This document shows, piece after piece, positions 3,133 to 27,048 of a stretch of DNA of 37,455 bases. How positions within the stretch are numbered: the first letter of the stretch is position 1; each line of letters begins with the position of its first letter. The notes beneath the pieces were generated by a model. It had not been told where the DNA came from. It saw only the letters and a program-made list of their open reading frames with translations, and made no database searches. The stretch is from a virus, in the UHGV virus genome UHGV-0248180; one strand, written 5' to 3'. The translations under genes were made by a program, and so were the position numbers.

Positions 3133-4101
<969 letters not shown>

Positions 4102-4135: not shown

Positions 4136-4172
4136 ATTCACAGTTACTAATTAAAATATTTAAAGGAAACAC

Positions 4173-4490
4173 ATGAAAACGTATAAAGAATTTATTGCAG
4201 AATCTGCTGCAGGACAACGTGTAGAAGGCGGTTATATCTGGATTGAACAAGTTGAGCCGCCAAGTCGCACTTCTACAGGTAAATGGAAAATCACTGTTGA
4301 TGGTCCTGGTGGTAAACGTAGGACTCTTAAAGAAATTAACGGGTACTATGAAGAAGCTCTTTCTGACGCGGGTACTTATATGATGCAAATCATGATTAAA
4401 AACCCAGAAAATCGTTTTGCGGCTAGAGTTTTCCGCCGTATTGGAAATAAGCTTTATGATGCATATTCTAAAAACTTCCCTAAAGAATAA
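4173..4490 (+). CDS. Capsid-targeted internal protein (105 aa) with N-terminal CTS MKTYKEFIAE
   Basis: N-terminal capsid targeting sequence typical of T-even internal proteins; located in the ip locus next to e. Confidence 0.75.
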   Translation: MKTYKEFIAESAAGQRVEGGYIWIEQVEPPSRTSTGKWKITVDGPGGKRRTLKEINGYYEEALSDAGTYMMQIMIKNPENRFAARVFRRIGNKLYDAYSKNFPKE

Positions 4491-4506
4491 AAATTAAAGG
4501 ATACAC

Positions 4507-4980
4507 ATGAAAACATATCAAGAATTTATTACTGAAGCAGCTATTAATTCTCAAATTATTGCTGAATCTTTTACTGATCTTTTGAAATTTAAAAAAGGAC
4601 AGAAAATCACTGCTGTATTGGATGACGGTACAGAAGTTGAGATGGATGTACAAGGATATAATTATGCAGTAGATGGAAAACTGTATAATAAATCTCATGC
4701 TAAATTTGATTCATTTGACGACTTTGTTAATACAGTTGAAGATGAAAAAACTCGTAGATCCATTGCAACGGGTGATGCTAAGGTTCTTATGGCACATGGC
4801 CATGAACGCATTCGCGCTAAGCAGAATAAAATGGGTGAAGATAATTTTGCATTAGTTGGTTATCAATCTGGTAAACAAACTTATGGTTATCAACGTACTG
4901 CTACCATGTATAACAAAAATGGTAAAATTGCCTTTGTGAATAGTAAAGGTTCTATTCAGTACGTCAAATCATTCAAATAA
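4507..4980 (+). CDS. Capsid-targeted internal protein (157 aa) with N-terminal CTS MKTYQEFITE
   Basis: CTS motif; leader and RBS nearly identical to the preceding ip gene. Confidence 0.75.
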   Translation: MKTYQEFITEAAINSQIIAESFTDLLKFKKGQKITAVLDDGTEVEMDVQGYNYAVDGKLYNKSHAKFDSFDDFVNTVEDEKTRRSIATGDAKVLMAHGHERIRAKQNKMGEDNFALVGYQSGKQTYGYQRTATMYNKNGKIAFVNSKGSIQYVKSFK

Positions 4981-5073
4981 TATGGGAACAACCTGGACCT
5001 TATGATTCTATAAGGGATTCCCGCCAACCTGTAATAAGGTCGAGCCTGAGTGCGGTAATGGGTAAATACAGAA

Positions 5074-5661
5074 ATGGACAATTCATGCGCCATGGAATGG
5101 CCCAAATTTAGAGAGAATAAAATGAGAACATTTTTAACTGGCCCGTATCTATCCCTGATGAATGCTTTTACACACCATTCTGATGCTAGAGTAGAAGAAA
5201 TTTGTAAAAACGAATATATCCCGCCATTTGAAGAATTACTTAAACAGTACTGCACACTTCGTATAGATGGTGGACGTCAATCCGGTAAATCAATTGCTGT
5301 GACTAACTTTGCTGCTAATTGGCTGTATGATGGCGGAACAGTTATTGTTCTTTCTAATACTTCAGCTTACGCTAAAATTTCTGCAAATAACATTAAAAAG
5401 GAATTTTCGCGTTATTCTAATGATGATATACGTTTTCGTTTATTTACTGATTCTGTGCGCAGTTTTATTGGTAATAAAGGAAGTAAGTTCAGAGGTTTAT
5501 CGCTTTCGCGAATTTTGTATATAATTGATGAGCCTGTCAAATCTCCTGATATGGATAAGATTTATAGCGTCCATATTGACACTGTACACTACTGCTGTAA
5601 TAGTAAATGTTGCATTGGTGGTATTACTCGTCCGCAGTTTTTCGTAATCGGAATGCAATGA
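5074..5661 (+). CDS. hypothetical P-loop NTPase-like protein (Walker A GGRQSGKS, Walker B-like ILYIIDEP)
   Basis: ORF; motifs read from translation; alternative start at ATG 5122; occupies the position where T4 carries denV. Confidence 0.55.
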   Translation: MDNSCAMEWPKFRENKMRTFLTGPYLSLMNAFTHHSDARVEEICKNEYIPPFEELLKQYCTLRIDGGRQSGKSIAVTNFAANWLYDGGTVIVLSNTSAYAKISANNIKKEFSRYSNDDIRFRLFTDSVRSFIGNKGSKFRGLSLSRILYIIDEPVKSPDMDKIYSVHIDTVHYCCNSKCCIGGITRPQFFVIGMQ

Positions 5662-5987
5662 TGACAGACACACAGCTTTTCGAATATCTTTATTTTTCGC
5701 CAAAAACTATTAAAAATAAATTGGTGAATCATTTTGAAATTTTGGCAAATAACAACATTTTGAGCGAATTTTATCCCAAGCAATACAAATTACAAAAAGG
5801 CGTATTCAAAGGATGCAGAGTTTTGTGTACTGCTCCTAACGCGCAGTTAATGAATAAAATTCCATATTTTACCATGGAATTTATTGATGGACCTTTTAAA
5901 GGACTAATCACCCAAAGTTTAATGGCATATGATTCTGAGCCATTTTTAATTAAAGAACAATCTTGGATAAATTTATTTTCTAATTGA
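5658..5987 (+). CDS. hypothetical protein (109 aa)
   Basis: ORF starting in an ATGATGA overlap with upstream stop. Confidence 0.5.
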
Positions 5988-5994
5988 GGTTTAT

Positions 5995-6357
5995 ATGAAA
6001 GCATATCAAATTCTTGAAGGCACACATAAAGGTACTATTTATTTTGAAGATGGTATTCAAGCACGAATTATTGTCTCTAAAACCTTTAAAGAGGACTCTT
6101 TTGTAGACCCAGAAATTTTCTATGGTTTGCATGCCCGTGAAATTGAAATTGAGCAACAGCCTACAGTTAAAATTGAAGGTGGTCAACACCTGAACGTTAA
6201 CGTTCTGCGTCGCGAAACTCTGGAAGATGCAGTTAAGCATCCGGAAAAATATCCGCAGCTGACCATCCGTGTATCCGGTTATGCAGTTCGCTTTAACTCT
6301 CTGACTCCGGAACAGCAGCGCGACGTTATTGCTCGTACCTTTACTGAGAGTTTGTAA
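5995..6357 (+). CDS. Autonomous glycyl-radical cofactor, GrcA/YfiD-like (120 aa)
   Basis: C-terminal ~65 aa ([60 protein letters not shown]) match E. coli GrcA as I recall it, including glycyl-radical motif RVSGY; codon usage of that segment is host-like. Confidence 0.9.
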
Positions 6358-6578
6358 TGGCAAAGATAATTATTGAAGGTTCTAAAGATGTGCTAAATGC
6401 TTTCGCCGAGTGGTTTAGTAATTCAGGCGAACAGCAATTTAATGAAGCGTGGAACATAGGTGATATTGATGGAATTTATCCTACGACAGAAATTTCTGTT
6501 CAGGGATATGGCATTCATGAACCTATTCGTTTAGTTGAATATGATTTATGTACTGGTGAGGAAGTCAAATATGATTGA
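6357..6578 (+). CDS. hypothetical protein (73 aa)
   Basis: ORF, TAATG overlap with upstream gene. Confidence 0.45.
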   Translation: MAKIIIEGSKDVLNAFAEWFSNSGEQQFNEAWNIGDIDGIYPTTEISVQGYGIHEPIRLVEYDLCTGEEVKYD

Positions 6579-6837
6579 AGATATTAAGGGTTATAAACCA
6601 CATACTGAAGAGAAAATCGGTAAAGTGAATGCTATTAAAGACGCTGAAGTTCGTTTAGGACTTATCTTTGACGCTTTATACGATGAATTCTGGGAAGCAC
6701 TAGATAATTGTGAAGATGATGAACTCGCGAAGAATTATGCTGAAAGCCTCGATCAGTTAACTATTGCTAAAACGAAACTCAAAGAAGCCAGTATGTGGGC
6801 TTGTCGTGCAGTGTTCCAACCAGAGGAAAAATACTAA
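6571..6837 (+). CDS. hypothetical protein (88 aa)
   Basis: ORF with GAGGAA RBS before ATG 6571. Confidence 0.45.
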
Positions 6838-7115
6838 TGGCTCAATTAAGTGCAGGGTTTGGTTATGAGTATTATACTGCACCTCGTCGTGTATCTGCCG
6901 CTCCTAAGAAAATTCAAAGTCTTGATGACTTCCAGGAAGTAGTCCGTAAAGCTTTTCAGGACTATGCACGTTATCTTAAAGAAGATTCACAGGACTGTCT
7001 CGAAGAAGATGAAATTGCTTACTATGAGCAGCGTCTTGAACAGCTTAAAAACTTACATGAGGTTCGTGCAGAAGTTTCAAAGTCTATGAATAAATTGATT
7101 AGATTTAAAGAATAA
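6837..7115 (+). CDS. hypothetical protein (92 aa)
   Basis: ORF, TAATG overlap. Confidence 0.5.
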
Positions 7116-7117
7116 CT

Positions 7118-7147
7118 GTTTACTTTTCCTCTTGACTGTGGTATAAT
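7118..7147 (+). promoter_or_regulatory. T4 early promoter upstream of regB (GTTTAC-N18-TGgTATAAT)
   Basis: GTTTAC 7118-7123; TG 7139-7140; TATAAT 7142-7147. Confidence 0.65.
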
Positions 7148-7174
7148 TTTTCTATCAGTTAAGAGGAGAATAAC

Positions 7175-7636
7175 ATGACTATCAATACAGAAGTTTTTAT
7201 CCGTCGAAATAAGCTTCGTCGTCACTTTGAGTCGGAGTTTCGTCAAATTAACAATGAGATTCGTGAGGCATCAAAAGCAGCAGGAGTCTCATCGTTTCAT
7301 CTAAAATATTCTCAGCATCTTCTTGATCGTGCAATTCAACGGGAGATTGATGAGACATATGTTTTTGAATTATTCCATAAAATAAAAGACCATGTTTTAG
7401 AAGTTAATGAATTCCTGAGTATGCCTCCACGTCCTGACATTGACGAGGATTTTATTGATGGGGTTGAATATCGTCCTGGGCGTTTGGAAATTACAGATGG
7501 AAATCTTTGGCTTGGATTTACGGTTTGTAAACCTAATGAGAAGTTCAAAAACCCGTCACTTCAATGTAGGATGGCAATTATCAACAGTCGTCGTTTACCA
7601 GGAAAGGCTTCTAAAGCAGTAATTAAAACTCAATGA
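7175..7636 (+). CDS. regB: RegB sequence-specific endoribonuclease (153 aa)
   Basis: Translation matches T4 RegB from memory; own Shine-Dalgarno contains the RegB target GGAG (7164-7167). Confidence 0.92.
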   Translation: MTINTEVFIRRNKLRRHFESEFRQINNEIREASKAAGVSSFHLKYSQHLLDRAIQREIDETYVFELFHKIKDHVLEVNEFLSMPPRPDIDEDFIDGVEYRPGRLEITDGNLWLGFTVCKPNEKFKNPSLQCRMAIINSRRLPGKASKAVIKTQ

Positions 7637-12475: not shown

Positions 12476-13020
12476 TGATGGGAGAGGCGAAACGATTAGT
12501 ATTAGAAGTTAGTTCACTTTTTGGTGAATTGGCTATAGAAAAAGTAAATAATATGTATCGTTTGACGCAAGAAGACGATATGCTATATTTTACGCCTAGT
12601 GAAATCATTCATTTAACCCAAATTGAAAATCCTTATACTGATAAAATTGTAAGCATTAATGATGAGCATAAAATTCATTTTTATTCTTCATGCCCAGGAT
12701 TTAATATTGAAAGCGAGTCAATATGCTTATCAGTTATCCATTGGGATAGTTTTATAGATAAGATTAAATATTTTTATTATTCTAATGAAAGAAAACACAG
12801 TTTAAAATGGTTTAAAAATTGCAATGCTATTATTACTAACGCTTGCAATCAGAATGATGAAACTGTTTTAAATGTATCAAAATGTTATGAAGATGGAGAT
12901 GTCTTAACTATTCGTCAAATTGATGATTTTCGATCGCATATTGTCACATTTACCAAAGACGAAGCTATTGCGCTAAAGACTTATCTTGATTCTGTCATTC
13001 CAACTATGATTTCAAAGTGA
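12475..13020 (+). CDS. hypothetical protein (181 aa), paralog of 13027 ORF
   Basis: ORF with GGAG RBS; C-terminal (A/E)AxALKTYLDSVIPTM resembles EAMIKYLTTVTPSM of the next gene. Confidence 0.6.
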   Translation: MMGEAKRLVLEVSSLFGELAIEKVNNMYRLTQEDDMLYFTPSEIIHLTQIENPYTDKIVSINDEHKIHFYSSCPGFNIESESICLSVIHWDSFIDKIKYFYYSNERKHSLKWFKNCNAIITNACNQNDETVLNVSKCYEDGDVLTIRQIDDFRSHIVTFTKDEAIALKTYLDSVIPTMISK

Positions 13021-15119: not shown

Positions 15120-16088
15120 ATGAAAACTGTAACTATTAATAAGGGTATCTATTTCGGTAAAGAAATCTCTGGAACTTTTGAGCTCTTAGGCGAATGGTTC
15201 CCAGATAATGCTCCGGTAGATGCACAAGGAGATGGTAAAGTTTTTGTTGAAATTGACGGTAAACGTCGCGGTGTTTGGGTTTACAAATCCGATATTTCAT
15301 ATGATGGTGTAAAAGTTGAAGAAGTTAAAGAATCATATGAAGATATGAAAACCCGCATTAATAAAAGATTTAATGTTATGGGAATGATGACGAATGGTAT
15401 TATTAACGGAAACATTCGTTCATTAATTATCTCTGGTGCGGCAGGTATTGGTAAAACGTATTCTTTAGATAAAGCTTTAAATAAAGCAAATGATGTTGGA
15501 TACATTGAGTATAAAAGCATTAATGGTAAAATCTCTGGTATCGGTCTTTATGAGCAGCTCTGGAATAATCGTGAAGAGAATTCTGTCCTTTTGATTGATG
15601 ATGTGGATGTTTTCTCTGATATGGACATTCTTAATCTTCTAAAAGCTGCTCTGGACACTGGAGAGACCCGTAAAGTCTGCTGGAGCACTGCATCTTCTTA
15701 CTTAGAAGAAAAAGGCATTGACCGTGAGTTTGAATTTAAAGGAACGATTGTTTTTATCACAAACGTTGACATTGACCGCGAATTAGATCGCGGAACTAAA
15801 CTTGCTCCACACCTACAAGCATTAGTGTCCCGCTCAGTTTATTTAGATTTAGGTGTTCACACTAATGAAGAAATTATGGTCAGGGTTGAAGATGTTATTC
15901 TTTCAACTGACATGATGCAAAAGCGTGGTCTTTCTGATGAAGAAACTTATAAAGCATTATCATGGATGAAAGTTAATGTTAATCGTTTACGCAATGTTTC
16001 ACTGCGTACTGCTCTTTATCTTGCTGACTTTATTATGACCGACAAAAACGGTTGGGAAGAAATCGCTGAGGTTACTCTTCTGAAATAA
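15120..16088 (+). CDS. Predicted AAA+-type P-loop ATPase (322 aa)
   Basis: Walker A GAAGIGKT, Walker B VLLIDDVD, sensor-like FITN; GGAG RBS; track start 14952 reads through the promoter. Confidence 0.7.
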   Translation: MKTVTINKGIYFGKEISGTFELLGEWFPDNAPVDAQGDGKVFVEIDGKRRGVWVYKSDISYDGVKVEEVKESYEDMKTRINKRFNVMGMMTNGIINGNIRSLIISGAAGIGKTYSLDKALNKANDVGYIEYKSINGKISGIGLYEQLWNNREENSVLLIDDVDVFSDMDILNLLKAALDTGETRKVCWSTASSYLEEKGIDREFEFKGTIVFITNVDIDRELDRGTKLAPHLQALVSRSVYLDLGVHTNEEIMVRVEDVILSTDMMQKRGLSDEETYKALSWMKVNVNRLRNVSLRTALYLADFIMTDKNGWEEIAEVTLLK

Positions 16089-16177
16089 TTCATAAGAGGA
16101 CTTCTATGACAAAAAGGCAGTTCAGAAATAGATTATATGGACTGCCATTAAAAAGATGACTAGAATTAAACTGGTGA

Positions 16178-22142: not shown

Positions 22143-22406
22143 ATGTTTAAAGTATATGGTTATGATAGCAACATTCATAAATGCGTGTATTGCGATAATG
22201 CAAAACGTCTTTTGACTGTGAAGAAACAGCCGTTTGAATTTATCAACATTATGCCGGAAAAAGGTGTTTTTGATGATGAGAAAATCGCTGAGCTTCTGAC
22301 TAAACTAGGTCGTGATACTCAAATCGGCTTGACAATGCCTCAGGTATTTGCTCCTGATGGAAGTCATATTGGTGGATTTGACCAACTGCGAGAATATTTT
22401 AAATGA
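22143..22406 (+). CDS. nrdC: Glutaredoxin/thioredoxin NrdC (87 aa)
   Basis: CVYC active site; matches T4 NrdC from memory. Confidence 0.92.
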   Translation: MFKVYGYDSNIHKCVYCDNAKRLLTVKKQPFEFINIMPEKGVFDDEKIAELLTKLGRDTQIGLTMPQVFAPDGSHIGGFDQLREYFK

Positions 22407-23654: not shown

Positions 23655-24128
23655 ATGTTATTGACTGGCAAATTATATAAAGAAGAAAAACAGAAATTTT
23701 ATGATGCACAAAACGGTAAATGTTTAATTTGCCAACGAGAACTAAATCCTGATGTTCAAGCTAATCATCTTGATCATGACCATGAATTAAATGGACCAAA
23801 AGCAGGAAAGGTACGTGGATTGCTTTGTAATCTCTGCAATGCCGCAGAAGGTCAAATGAAGCATAAATTTAATCGTTCTGGATTAAAGGGACAAGGTGTT
23901 GATTATCTTGAATGGTTAGAAAATTTACTTACTTATTTAAAATCCGATTACACCCAAAATAATATTCACCCTAACTTTGTTGGAGATAAATCAAAGGAAT
24001 TTTCTCGTTTAGGAAAAGAGGAAATGATGGCCGAGATGCTTCAAAGAGGATTTGAATATAATGAATCTGACACCAAAACACAGTTAATAGCTTCATTTAA
24101 GAAGCAGCTTAGAAAGAGTTTAAAATGA
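23655..24128 (+). CDS. 49: Endonuclease VII, Holliday junction resolvase (157 aa)
   Basis: Translation matches T4 gp49 from memory; zinc motif CLICQ..CNLC. Confidence 0.95.
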   Translation: MLLTGKLYKEEKQKFYDAQNGKCLICQRELNPDVQANHLDHDHELNGPKAGKVRGLLCNLCNAAEGQMKHKFNRSGLKGQGVDYLEWLENLLTYLKSDYTQNNIHPNFVGDKSKEFSRLGKEEMMAEMLQRGFEYNESDTKTQLIASFKKQLRKSLK

Positions 24129-25942
24129 CAATTGAAAAAGAAATTGAAGGATTGATTCATAAAACTAATAAAGACCTTTTAAACGAGAATGCTAATAAAG
24201 ATTCTCGTGTTTTTCCAACTCAACGGGACCTTATGGCTGGTATTGTGTCTAAACACATTGCCAAAAATATGGTCCCGTCTTTTATTATGAAAGCGCATGA
24301 AAGCGGAATTATTCATTTCCATGATATTGATTATTCCCCTGCTCTTCCATTTACTAATTGTTGTTTAGTAGATTTAAAAGGAATGCTTGAAAACGGATTT
24401 AAGCTTGGTAATGCACAGATTGAAACTCCTAAATCAATTGGCGTTGCTACTGCAATTATGGCGCAAATTACTGCGCAAGTTGCTTCCCATCAATACGGCG
24501 GAACGACTTTTGCGAATGTAGATAAAGTACTTTCTCCTTATGTTAAACGCACCTATGCAAAACATATTGAGGATGCAGAAAAATGGCAAATCGCTGATGC
24601 GTTGAATTATGCTCAATCTAAAACAGAAAAAGACGTATACGATGCATTTCAAGCTTATGAATATGAAGTAAACACTCTCTTTAGTTCAAACGGACAAACG
24701 CCTTTTGTAACAATTACATTTGGTACGGGAACTGACTGGACTGAACGAATGATTCAGAAAGCAATTCTGAAAAATCGTATTAAAGGTCTTGGTCGTGATG
24801 GGATAACTCCTATTTTCCCTAAGCTTGTTATGTTCGTTGAAGAAGGCGTTAATCTTTATAAAGACGATCCGAATTACGACATTAAGCAACTTGCTCTAGA
24901 GTGTGCAAGCAAAAGGATGTATCCTGATATTATTTCAGCTAAGAACAATAAAGCTATCACTGGTTCATCTGTTCCTGTTTCTCCAATGGGTTGCCGTAGT
25001 TTCTTGAGCGTATGGAAAGATTCGACTGGTAATGAAATTCTTGATGGACGTAATAATCTTGGTGTTGTAACACTGAATCTTCCTCGCATCGCGTTAGATT
25101 CTTATATTGGAACACAGTTCAATGAACAGAAATTTGCTGAATTATTCAATGAACGAATGGATTTATGTTTTGAAGCTTTGATGTGTAGAATTAGTTCCTT
25201 AAAAGGAGTTAAAGCTACTGTTGCTCCTATTCTTTACCAAGAAGGTGCATTCGGGGTTCGTCTTAAACCTGATGACGACATAATTGAGTTATTTAAAAAC
25301 GGTAGAAGTTCAGTGTCTTTAGGATACATTGGTATTCACGAATTGAATATTCTTGTCGGTCGTGATATTGGACGAGAAATTTTAACTAAAATGAATGCTC
25401 ATCTTAAACAGTGGACTGAAAGAACTGGATTTGCTTTTAGCTTGTATTCTACTCCCGCTGAAAACCTTTGTTATCGCTTCTGTAAACTTGATACTGAAAA
25501 ATATGGAAGTGTAAAAGATGTTACTGATAAAGGCTGGTACACTAATAGTTTCCATGTTTCAGTAGAAGAAAATATTACTCCGTTTGAAAAGATTTCTCGC
25601 GAAGCCCCATATCATTTCATTGCGACAGGTGGTCACATTTCTTATGTTGAACTTCCTGATATGAAAAATAACTTAAAAGGTCTTGAGGCCGTGTGGGATT
25701 ATGCTGCACAGCATTTAGATTATTTTGGTGTTAATATGCCAGTAGATAAGTGTTTTACATGCGGAAGTACCCATGAAATGACTCCTACTGAAAACGGATT
25801 TGTTTGTTCTATTTGTGGAGAAACTGATCCTAAAAAGATGAACACAATAAGAAGAACATGTGGTTATTTGGGAAATCCGAACGAGCGCGGATTTAATCTT
25901 GGCAAAAATAAAGAAATCATGCATAGGGTTAAACACCAATGA
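24125..25942 (+). CDS. nrdD: Anaerobic ribonucleoside-triphosphate reductase NrdD (class III), 605 aa, uninterrupted
   Basis: C-terminal glycyl-radical motif RRTCGYLG and zinc ribbon CFTCGS..CSICG. Confidence 0.95.
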   Translation: MTIEKEIEGLIHKTNKDLLNENANKDSRVFPTQRDLMAGIVSKHIAKNMVPSFIMKAHESGIIHFHDIDYSPALPFTNCCLVDLKGMLENGFKLGNAQIETPKSIGVATAIMAQITAQVASHQYGGTTFANVDKVLSPYVKRTYAKHIEDAEKWQIADALNYAQSKTEKDVYDAFQAYEYEVNTLFSSNGQTPFVTITFGTGTDWTERMIQKAILKNRIKGLGRDGITPIFPKLVMFVEEGVNLYKDDPNYDIKQLALECASKRMYPDIISAKNNKAITGSSVPVSPMGCRSFLSVWKDSTGNEILDGRNNLGVVTLNLPRIALDSYIGTQFNEQKFAELFNERMDLCFEALMCRISSLKGVKATVAPILYQEGAFGVRLKPDDDIIELFKNGRSSVSLGYIGIHELNILVGRDIGREILTKMNAHLKQWTERTGFAFSLYSTPAENLCYRFCKLDTEKYGSVKDVTDKGWYTNSFHVSVEENITPFEKISREAPYHFIATGGHISYVELPDMKNNLKGLEAVWDYAAQHLDYFGVNMPVDKCFTCGSTHEMTPTENGFVCSICGETDPKKMNTIRRTCGYLGNPNERGFNLGKNKEIMHRVKHQ

Positions 25943-26409
25943 ATTACGATAGATTTTATCCCTGCGATTTTGTGAATGGCCCTGGATGCAGGGTCGTTCT
26001 TTTCGTTACAGGTTGTTTGCATAAATGTGAAGGGTGTTATAATAAATCAACATGGAATGCTAGAAATGGTATTCCATTCACTGGTGAAACACTAGAACAA
26101 TTAATTGAATGTTTGAATAATGATTATATAGAAGGATTAACTATAACTGGAGGAGACCCTCTCTATCCTGATAACCGAGATGTTATTCATTGCATCGTTC
26201 AAACAGTAAAAAATCTTTATCCCAATAAAAGCATTTGGTTGTGGACAGGATATAAGTTTGAAGATATTAAACAACTAGAAATGCTTAAATATGTTGATGT
26301 TATTATTGATGGGAAGTATGAGAAAAATCTTCCGACTAAAAAGCTGTGGCGAGGATCAGATAATCAGCGACTTTGGTCAAATACCGATGGGGTGTGGAAA
26401 CATGATTAA
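25939..26409 (+). CDS. nrdG: Anaerobic RNR activating enzyme NrdG (radical SAM), 156 aa
   Basis: Radical-SAM cluster motif CLHKCEGC; ATGA overlap with nrdD. Confidence 0.93.
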   Translation: MNYDRFYPCDFVNGPGCRVVLFVTGCLHKCEGCYNKSTWNARNGIPFTGETLEQLIECLNNDYIEGLTITGGDPLYPDNRDVIHCIVQTVKNLYPNKSIWLWTGYKFEDIKQLEMLKYVDVIIDGKYEKNLPTKKLWRGSDNQRLWSNTDGVWKHD

Positions 26410-26739: not shown

Positions 26740-27048
26740 GTGAAACAAAATAAGATTGAAGTCTATGGAATTCCAGATGAAGTTGGTCGTTGTCCTGGAT
26801 GTCAATCAGTTACAAAACTTCTAAAGGAGCTCAATGCTCCTTTTACTTTCTATAAAGTTCTTACAAATAATGGTAAGATTGAGTATGATCGTCCACTGAT
26901 TGTATCTCTTGCTAAACGCGCCGGATTCACATCTCTTAACATTCGTTATCCAGTCATTTTCATTAATGATTCTAGACAAAAGAACATTAAACATTTCAAA
27001 GAAACTCTCATTTCACTTGGATATGATAGAGATATCATAGAAGACTAA
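26740..27048 (+). CDS. nrdH: Thioredoxin/glutaredoxin-like redoxin (NrdH-like), 102 aa, GTG start
   Basis: CPGC dithiol motif near N-terminus; adjacent to nrdD/nrdG; AGGAA RBS before GTG 26740. Confidence 0.55.
   Translation: MKQNKIEVYGIPDEVGRCPGCQSVTKLLKELNAPFTFYKVLTNNGKIEYDRPLIVSLAKRAGFTSLNIRYPVIFINDSRQKNIKHFKETLISLGYDRDIIED

Follow-up and report, generated by a model that had tools for sequence, protein, structure and literature searches.

Probable replacement of the 3' part of the T4-like phage gene vs.6 by Escherichia coli grcA

How does a gene of a virulent, T4-like phage come to consist of one half that resembles the phage and another half that resembles a chromosomal gene of the host? 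The question is raised by an open reading frame in the window, that is, the whole 37.5 kb stretch of viral DNA analyzed here, which a sequence-only reading had described as a glycyl radical cofactor gene with a host-derived, compositionally distinct 3' half. The gene and its parts are the following:

5995..6357, plus strand: vs.6 (Y06I) coding sequence, a GrcA/YfiD-type autonomous glycyl radical cofactor (ORF list, BLASTP, TIGR04365, PDB 6OWR)
5986..5989, plus strand: putative Shine-Dalgarno motif GAGG, 5 nt 5' of the ATG (read from the sequence)
5995..6172, plus strand: AT-rich 5' part, GC 0.34, GC3 0.20 (composition, hhalign, dN/dS)
6173..6329, plus strand: apparently host-derived tract, 157 nt, 100% identical to E. 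coli K-12 grcA (pairwise alignment, mismatch positions)
6277..6279, plus strand: Gly95 codon, predicted glycyl radical site (motif position; alignments to 6OWR and PflB)
6330..6357, plus strand: 3' end with phage-type synonymous codons and TAA, holding the right-hand edge of the tract (mismatch map)

According to the ORF list, the gene starts with ATG and encodes 120 aa; its TAA stop codon overlaps the ATG of vs.5 at 6357, and the stop codon of vs.7 (5985-5987) overlaps the GAGG motif. Positions 5000-7500 of the window are 98.4% identical to phage RB14, and most of this region is covered by 490 phage records. By these similarities, the stretch is a Tequatrovirus segment with RB14 as its closest relative. 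In the orientation of the window, the gene order is e, an Ip4-like ORF, vs.8, vs.7, vs.6, vs.5, vs.4, vs.3, regB, and vs.1, and the gene between vs.7 and vs.5, upstream of regB, occupies the position of vs.6 in T4. At the nucleotide level, it is 100% identical to its counterpart in Shigella phage ESh25, 98.9% to that of RB14, and 98.6% to those of T4 and T2; altogether, the identity is 98-100% to RB14, T2, T4, and about 490 other records. The protein shares 99% aa identity with Vs.6 of RB14, and matches to vs.6-like genes were found in 1,512 phage records. Because of the synteny with RB14 and the nucleotide identity, we regard the ORF as the orthologue of T4 vs.6/Y06I, the homologue that the sequence-only reading had named. 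The gene and its biochemical role are already known from T4, and this is not a new kind of system. A scan for promoters and terminators between 4300 and 7700 gave no excess over shuffled sequence (11 versus 11.7 and 2 versus 2.0, respectively) and is therefore uninformative on the expression of vs.6.

The window also shows several differences from RB14. The seg-like homing endonuclease gene RB32ORF093c is absent, and about 450 nt around mobD.1 are missing. About 350 nt between the lysozyme gene e (3607-4098) and the Ip4-like ORF (4507-4980) have no counterpart in RB14. The sites of difference are located at about 16069-16108, 12478-12489, and 4147-4493. In addition, positions 1-94 of the window are a perfect inverted copy of positions 136-229, with a spacer of 41 nt, and RB14 has a single copy of this sequence inside e.8. 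The inverted copy at 1-229 probably reflects a fold-back error in assembling the end of the contig, not biology.

At the protein level, Vs.6 is a member of the GrcA/YfiD family. Its residues 61-120 are identical to residues 68-127 of E. coli GrcA (BLASTP, E 7e-52 for the whole protein), as had been noticed for the C-terminal part, and the RVSGYAVRF motif occupies residues 92-100. The predicted radical glycine in this motif is Gly95, which corresponds to Gly102 in GrcA and to Gly734 in PflB according to alignments to 6OWR and PflB. Residues 22-120 align to residues 28-127 of PDB 6OWR (E 9e-42), and residues 58-120 align to residues 697-759 of PflB (E 5e-26); the latter, not NrdD, is the next best match of the radical domain after GrcA. 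As is typical of the family, the members of which have a mass of about 14 kDa, Vs.6 is a small stand-alone protein, the C-terminal half of which duplicates the radical domain of PflB. The Pfam family PF01228 (Gly_radical) was matched with 67 bits at a cut-off of 22.2. The best-scoring family by a wide margin was TIGR04365, the NCBIfam equivalog for GrcA (E 1.2e-45, aligned over residues 20-120), although the score of 154.9 bits stays below the equivalog cut-off of 170 bits because the N-terminal half is divergent.

This N-terminal half is about 31% identical to that of GrcA and about 7 residues shorter than the half in E. coli. Taken alone, it had no match in NCBIfam and no significant match in Pfam. 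Nevertheless, BLASTP aligns residues 22-59 with residues 28-66 of GrcA, and a comparison of the N-terminal halves only, with a profile of 7 phage sequences against a profile of 9 host sequences, revealed homology over 42 columns (hhalign, probability 93%, E 2.8e-7). Between the window and Mosigvirus SF, dN in this half is 0.052 compared with a dS of 0.48 (dN/dS about 0.11), and it is therefore, by this measure, under purifying selection. We accordingly reject the idea that a host domain was fused to an unrelated phage domain: since the N-terminal half is homologous to that of GrcA and appears to be under purifying selection, vs.6 is best described as an old phage-resident grcA homologue with an overwritten 3' part. 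The earlier characterization of the N-terminal part as phage-like is correct for its composition, but this part is not foreign to the GrcA family.

The shift in composition inside the gene was confirmed by the sliding-window GC and codon usage analysis that had been suggested as a check. The GC content is 0.339 in the 5' half (5995-6171) and 0.486 in the 3' half (6172-6354), and GC3 rises from 0.20 to 0.43, whereas the two halves of E. coli grcA, with GC3 values of 0.39 and 0.44, show a far smaller contrast. Across the whole 37.5 kb, windows of 183 nt have a mean GC content of 0.343 (SD 0.04); those as GC-rich as the 3' half of vs.6 (0.05% of all) start exclusively at 6150-6181, with the peak of 0.492 at 6153. 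The maximum-likelihood change point is nt 183 of the gene (window position 6178). Among 155 control chunks from other ORFs, 3.9% have a log-likelihood ratio above the 4.56 of this change point, so this statistic alone is only moderate. The codon usage is much more distinctive. The proposed preference for GC-rich, host-like codons (CTG, CGT, CCG) is borne out by 14 of the 15 Leu, Arg, and Pro codons in the 3' half, which are CTG, CGY, or CCG, compared with 24% in the other ORFs of the window (binomial p = 2.5e-8).

The nucleotide alignment to E. coli grcA located the similarity precisely. On the 5' side of 6173, vs.6 and K-12 grcA have no alignable DNA similarity. From 6173 onward, a perfect run of 157 nt extends to 6329, and the only mismatches are at 6330, 6348, 6351, and 6352. 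At 6330, the phage has ATT and the host ATC, followed by 17 identical bases; at the other three positions, the phage has GAG AGT TTG and the host GAA AGC CTG. The similarity to grcA ends at the stop codon of vs.6. The same 3'-end variants are present in phage lineages that lack a host-identical tract. Host-identical synonymous sites that are bounded, within the homologous region, by phage-type sequence constitute the pattern of a conversion tract, the limits of which most likely lie at 6173-6181 on the left and at 6329-6347 on the right. The segment originally given as about 6165-6357 was thus close, but the actual limits are 6173 and 6329 (or 6347). The tract 6173-6329 covers residues 60-111, with a phage-type I60, and part of codon 112, and it contains the beta-strand y-beta1 and the glycyl radical loop.

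A grcA segment matching the tract is present in all 5,426 complete E. coli genomes, and no other part of the 37.5 kb has megablast similarity to any of these genomes. The tract of RB14 is identical to grcA of sampled E. coli genomes at 164 of 164 positions and at least 99% identical to grcA in 5,157 of the 5,426 genomes. In the window, one codon of the tract is CGC, the minority version found in K-12, whereas most phages and most E. coli have CGT; this CGC version is matched at 99% or more by 1,249 E. coli genomes. Over 156 nt of the tract, the numbers of mismatches between the window and possible donors are:

E. coli K-12: 1
another Escherichia species: 4
Citrobacter: 14
K. pneumoniae type: 19
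Salmonella: 28

These counts parallel the distances among the hosts themselves. Given a single mismatch to E. coli, compared with 14 to Citrobacter and 28 to Salmonella, the donor is, by this comparison, Escherichia. The direction of the transfer is read as host to phage because the two halves of the host gene differ far less in composition than those of vs.6 and because the host gene tracks the host phylogeny.

The comparison with other phages, in which 142 distinct host tracts were used, shows that a host-like tract is not a general property of the gene. The 3' halves of Karamvirus, Slopekvirus, Pseudotevenvirus, Krischvirus-like, and T5-like phages differ from every sampled host at 20-45 of 156 nt. 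In CC31-type Karamvirus (represented by L094, which we take to be of this type), Slopekvirus, Pseudotevenvirus, and T5-like phages, the C-terminus is the same or nearly so, and GC3 is mostly low. E. coli grcA is matched at 95-99% identity by 605 records of Tequatrovirus and Mosigvirus. In all of the roughly 650 coliphage records with a match to it, the left edge is the same (query position 300).

Different donors are apparent in Jiaodavirus. A 166-kb metagenomic phage contig of this genus (L188) does not differ at any of 156 nt from the grcA allele L171, and phage KPV15 differs from it at one; L171 is the chromosomal grcA in 18 metagenome contigs, and its protein is GRCA_KLEP7 of K. pneumoniae. 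Another Jiaodavirus contig (L182) differs at 2 of 156 nt from the allele L172, the protein of which is that of Raoultella ornithinolytica. These donors were detected by a pattern scan of metagenomes and identified by exact protein match; among the best 80 hits of the GTDB scan, there was no K. pneumoniae locus. Host and phage contigs are clearly distinguishable: in host contigs of the L171 and L172 types, ung adjoins grcA and the GC content is 54-56%, and the Jiaodavirus contigs carry vs.8, vs.7, regB, and vs.1 and have 40% GC. The Jiaodavirus alleles have only 2-3 differences per 204 nt in the flanks versus 8-12 per 156 nt in the tracts (Fisher p = 0.006-0.06). In the phage collection, 106 records match the K. 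pneumoniae-type segment at 95-99% identity, and 4 records match the Raoultella-type segment in the same range. With their nearly unchanged flanks and divergent tracts, the Jiaodavirus alleles bear, at the level of the alignments, the marks of separate conversions in which the donors differed. Because the Jiaodavirus alleles match either K. pneumoniae-type or Raoultella-type grcA, the host gene appears to have overwritten the tract more than once.

The correspondence between phage tract and host is imperfect, since no Salmonella-type tract was found in the phage collection (highest identity 83.8%) and since phages ATCCa and phiKp_22, which were isolated on K. pneumoniae, carry a Raoultella-type tract (97.6%). 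The Raoultella-named phages Ra_O-1 and Ra_O-2 are just 94.6% identical to the Raoultella-type tract. Two further observations concern individual alleles. The Klebsiella phages 311F and KMI9 encode the Klebsiella-type LLDAVEH instead of the E. coli-type LEDAVKH, and LLDAVEH is present even though the DNA of KMI9, a Slopekvirus, is not host-identical; this could reflect an older conversion or selection for a match to the host protein. In Escherichia phage vB-Eco-KMB39 (1501-1918 of record L087), a 55-nt tandem duplication within the host tract causes a frameshift that splits vs.6 into two annotated ORFs, which is either a natural knock-out or a sequencing error.

We propose the following origin of the mosaic. 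The ancestral phage gene would already have been a full-length, AT-rich grcA homologue, in which strong amino acid conservation held the identity between the 3' half and host grcA at roughly 80-87%. Such an identity would have sufficed for the phage gene to undergo homologous recombination, by patch gene conversion, with the chromosome of the infected host. T4 recombines in vivo with homologous cytosine-containing plasmid DNA. In the lineage of the window, E. coli grcA would have replaced the tract from 6173-6181 to 6329-6347, leaving a few phage-type nucleotides at either end of the region of homology; the left limit of the patch would be the point where the homology ends, and its right limit a short phage-type anchor. 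The same process would have occurred independently in Klebsiella phages, with Klebsiella and Raoultella as donors, and would thus be recurrent and host-tracking. We consider it probable that the tract of vs.6 is a site of ongoing recombination, which the recently encountered host grcA allele overwrites repeatedly, and that it is a record of the recent host genus (Escherichia, Klebsiella, or Raoultella). The literature that was searched gave the function of the T4 protein and a note on its Pfam match, and no description of the tract at the nucleotide level or of its recurrence.

What would the phage gain from such a gene? As reported by Wagner et al. (2001) and cited via PMC8683613, T4 Y06I is activated by PFL-activase and reconstitutes O2-fragmented PFL, which agrees with the repair function that the sequence-only reading had ascribed to the T4 homologue. 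Residues 1-60 of E. coli YfiD, which have no ordered structure in solution, promote the binding to cleaved PFL and efficient installation of the radical, and residues 61-127 have the fold of residues 693-759 of PflB and carry the radical (PMC8683613). The start of the tract at phage codon 60 (GrcA codon 67) lies only a few codons from this domain boundary at 60/61. It is very probable that Vs.6 is a 13-kDa "spare part" for host PFL and that its 3' tract was replaced by E. coli grcA via recombination. In the proposed mechanism, O2 would cleave active PflB at the radical glycine Gly734, and Vs.6 would bind the cleaved enzyme with the aid of its N-terminal half. The C-terminal domain, with the fold of PflB 693-759, would substitute for the lost radical domain, and host PflA would install the glycyl radical on Gly95 and thereby restore PFL activity. 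By orthology, the allele of the window is likewise expected to be activated by PflA and to replace the radical domain of oxygen-damaged PflB during infection. The phage copy might sustain the fermentative production of acetyl-CoA and ATP under micro-oxic, gut-like conditions, and a phage-encoded copy would be useful because T4 shuts off host gene expression. A demonstration that vs.6 benefits the phage in vivo was not found in the literature searched.

Several other explanations of these data have to be weighed. That the mosaic is an artefact of host reads assembled into a phage contig, or that the transfer went from phage to host, has a negligible probability. The perfect 94-nt fold-back at the start of the window does show that this contig probably contains an assembly artefact, but more than 600 phage genomes that were sequenced independently, T4, T2, and RB14 among them, share the mosaic and its phage-type ends, and the reading frame and junctions are clean, which rules out an assembly chimera; a transfer from phage to host is ruled out by the agreement of the host tract with the host species tree and by the far smaller difference in composition between the host halves. 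It is hardly more plausible that the whole gene was acquired once and that strong selection on the protein, perhaps also on codons, made the 3' half host-like without any recombination. The C-terminal 60 residues are indeed invariant across Enterobacteriaceae and many phages. However, RB16 shares its C-terminal 60 residues with the window, and Slopekvirus KMI9 departs from them at two residues, yet both use AT-rich codons, and each has 24 mismatches to E. coli over the 156 nt. Therefore, the synonymous sites are not fixed by selection on the protein; the probability that amino acid conservation alone would yield identity over the 157 positions is about 1e-11. Moreover, the tract is specifically E. 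coli-like and not generically enterobacterial. These synonymous-site data effectively refute selection at the protein level as the sole cause. With regard to function, it is improbable that Vs.6 serves the phage NrdD or that, as a decoy, it sequesters host PFL or PFL-activase instead of repairing PFL. Nolan et al. (2006) proposed a role in nucleotide metabolism, based on a Pfam match, vs.6 is not known to have an in vivo phenotype, and nrdD and nrdG are encoded in the same genome; indeed, vs.6 had been grouped with nrdD, nrdG, and an NrdH-like redoxin in an anaerobic glycyl radical toolkit. The nrd genes are located in the window as follows:

22143-22403: nrdC
24125-25939: nrdD
25939-26406: nrdG
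about 26746-27045: nrdH

Although nrdD, nrdG, and nrdH are present as claimed, the grouping is a loose one, because they lie about 18 kb downstream of vs.6 in other transcription units, and the data presented here indicate no functional link between the nrd genes and vs.6. Furthermore, the radical domain is identical to that of GrcA and has its next best match in PflB 697-759, not in NrdD, and T4 Y06I is the protein reported, via the source cited above, to restore PFL activity in vitro.

The alternative with the most weight, which we nevertheless regard as rather unlikely, is a single conversion or acquisition in the common ancestor of Tequatrovirus and Mosigvirus, followed by vertical inheritance and no later exchange with the host in the lineage of the window. 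This would account for the left edge shared by all roughly 650 coliphage records, although a shared edge is forced under either reading because the homology ends there. It would also account for the phage-type GAG AGT variants at the 3' end that are common to both genera, and only 0-3 differences per 156 nt have to be explained, with the CGC/CGT polymorphism and the ATT at 6330 each attributable to a single point mutation. Several observations argue against it. The dS between the window and Mosigvirus SF falls from 0.48 in the 5' half to 0.11 in the tract (Fisher p = 0.008-0.03). The CGC/CGT polymorphism, of which the window carries the minority K-12-type CGC, is common to the E. coli population. 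The right edge differs, with ATT at 6330 in the window versus the ATC of the host in RB14, and the lineages that lack a host tract have ATT as well, which would imply a different right-hand breakpoint. Finally, independent events are evident in Jiaodavirus. Across the phages compared, we favor repeated overwriting of the tract by host grcA over a single, ancient conversion; for the coliphages taken alone, one ancestral conversion with slow decay afterwards would also fit the data.

If repeated overwriting is the correct reading, vs.6 contains a record of roughly 160 nt that could be used for the inference of hosts and of natural rates of recombination between phages and hosts. The tract names the donor genus and might aid the host assignment of T4-like contigs, for which it is unreliable alone. 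The mosaic is unusually clean sequence evidence that a virulent phage that degrades host DNA still recombines with host DNA in nature, and it suggests that recombination can keep a metabolic helper gene exactly matched to the enzyme of the local host. There is also a practical aspect. According to a proposal published in 2026 (PMC12845203), grcA could serve as the marker gene in qPCR assays of Straboviridae. Primers located in the 3' half (6173-6357) would also match the chromosomal grcA of every E. coli.

The closest known system is Vs.6/Y06I of T4, which has the same length and is encoded in the same vs.8-vs.7-vs.6-vs.5-vs.4-vs.3-regB block; the allele of the window differs from it by a few synonymous changes only, and is marked by CGC instead of the commoner CGT at one codon of the tract and by ATT at 6328-6330. 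E. coli GrcA (YfiD, PDB 6OWR) has the same two-part architecture and identical C-terminal 60 residues. Unlike grcA, vs.6 resides in a phage operon and is expressed from phage signals. The promoter of the host gene is regulated by FNR and ArcA. The GrcA-like genes of T5-like phages, Karamvirus, Slopekvirus, and Pseudotevenvirus belong to the same family and share this architecture, but lack a recent overwrite by the host. A broader parallel is offered by the psbA and psbD genes of T4-like cyanomyoviruses, for which Zeidner in 2005 and Sullivan in 2006 reportedly described intragenic recombination between host and phage. In both cases, a metabolic gene of a virulent T4-like phage contains mosaic tracts exchanged with the host and shows an intragenic shift in composition. 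In contrast to the cyanophage genes, vs.6 has a short tract of about 160 nt that stays inside a single structural domain, hardly differs from the allele of present-day hosts, and occurs in enterobacterial phages with three donor genera.
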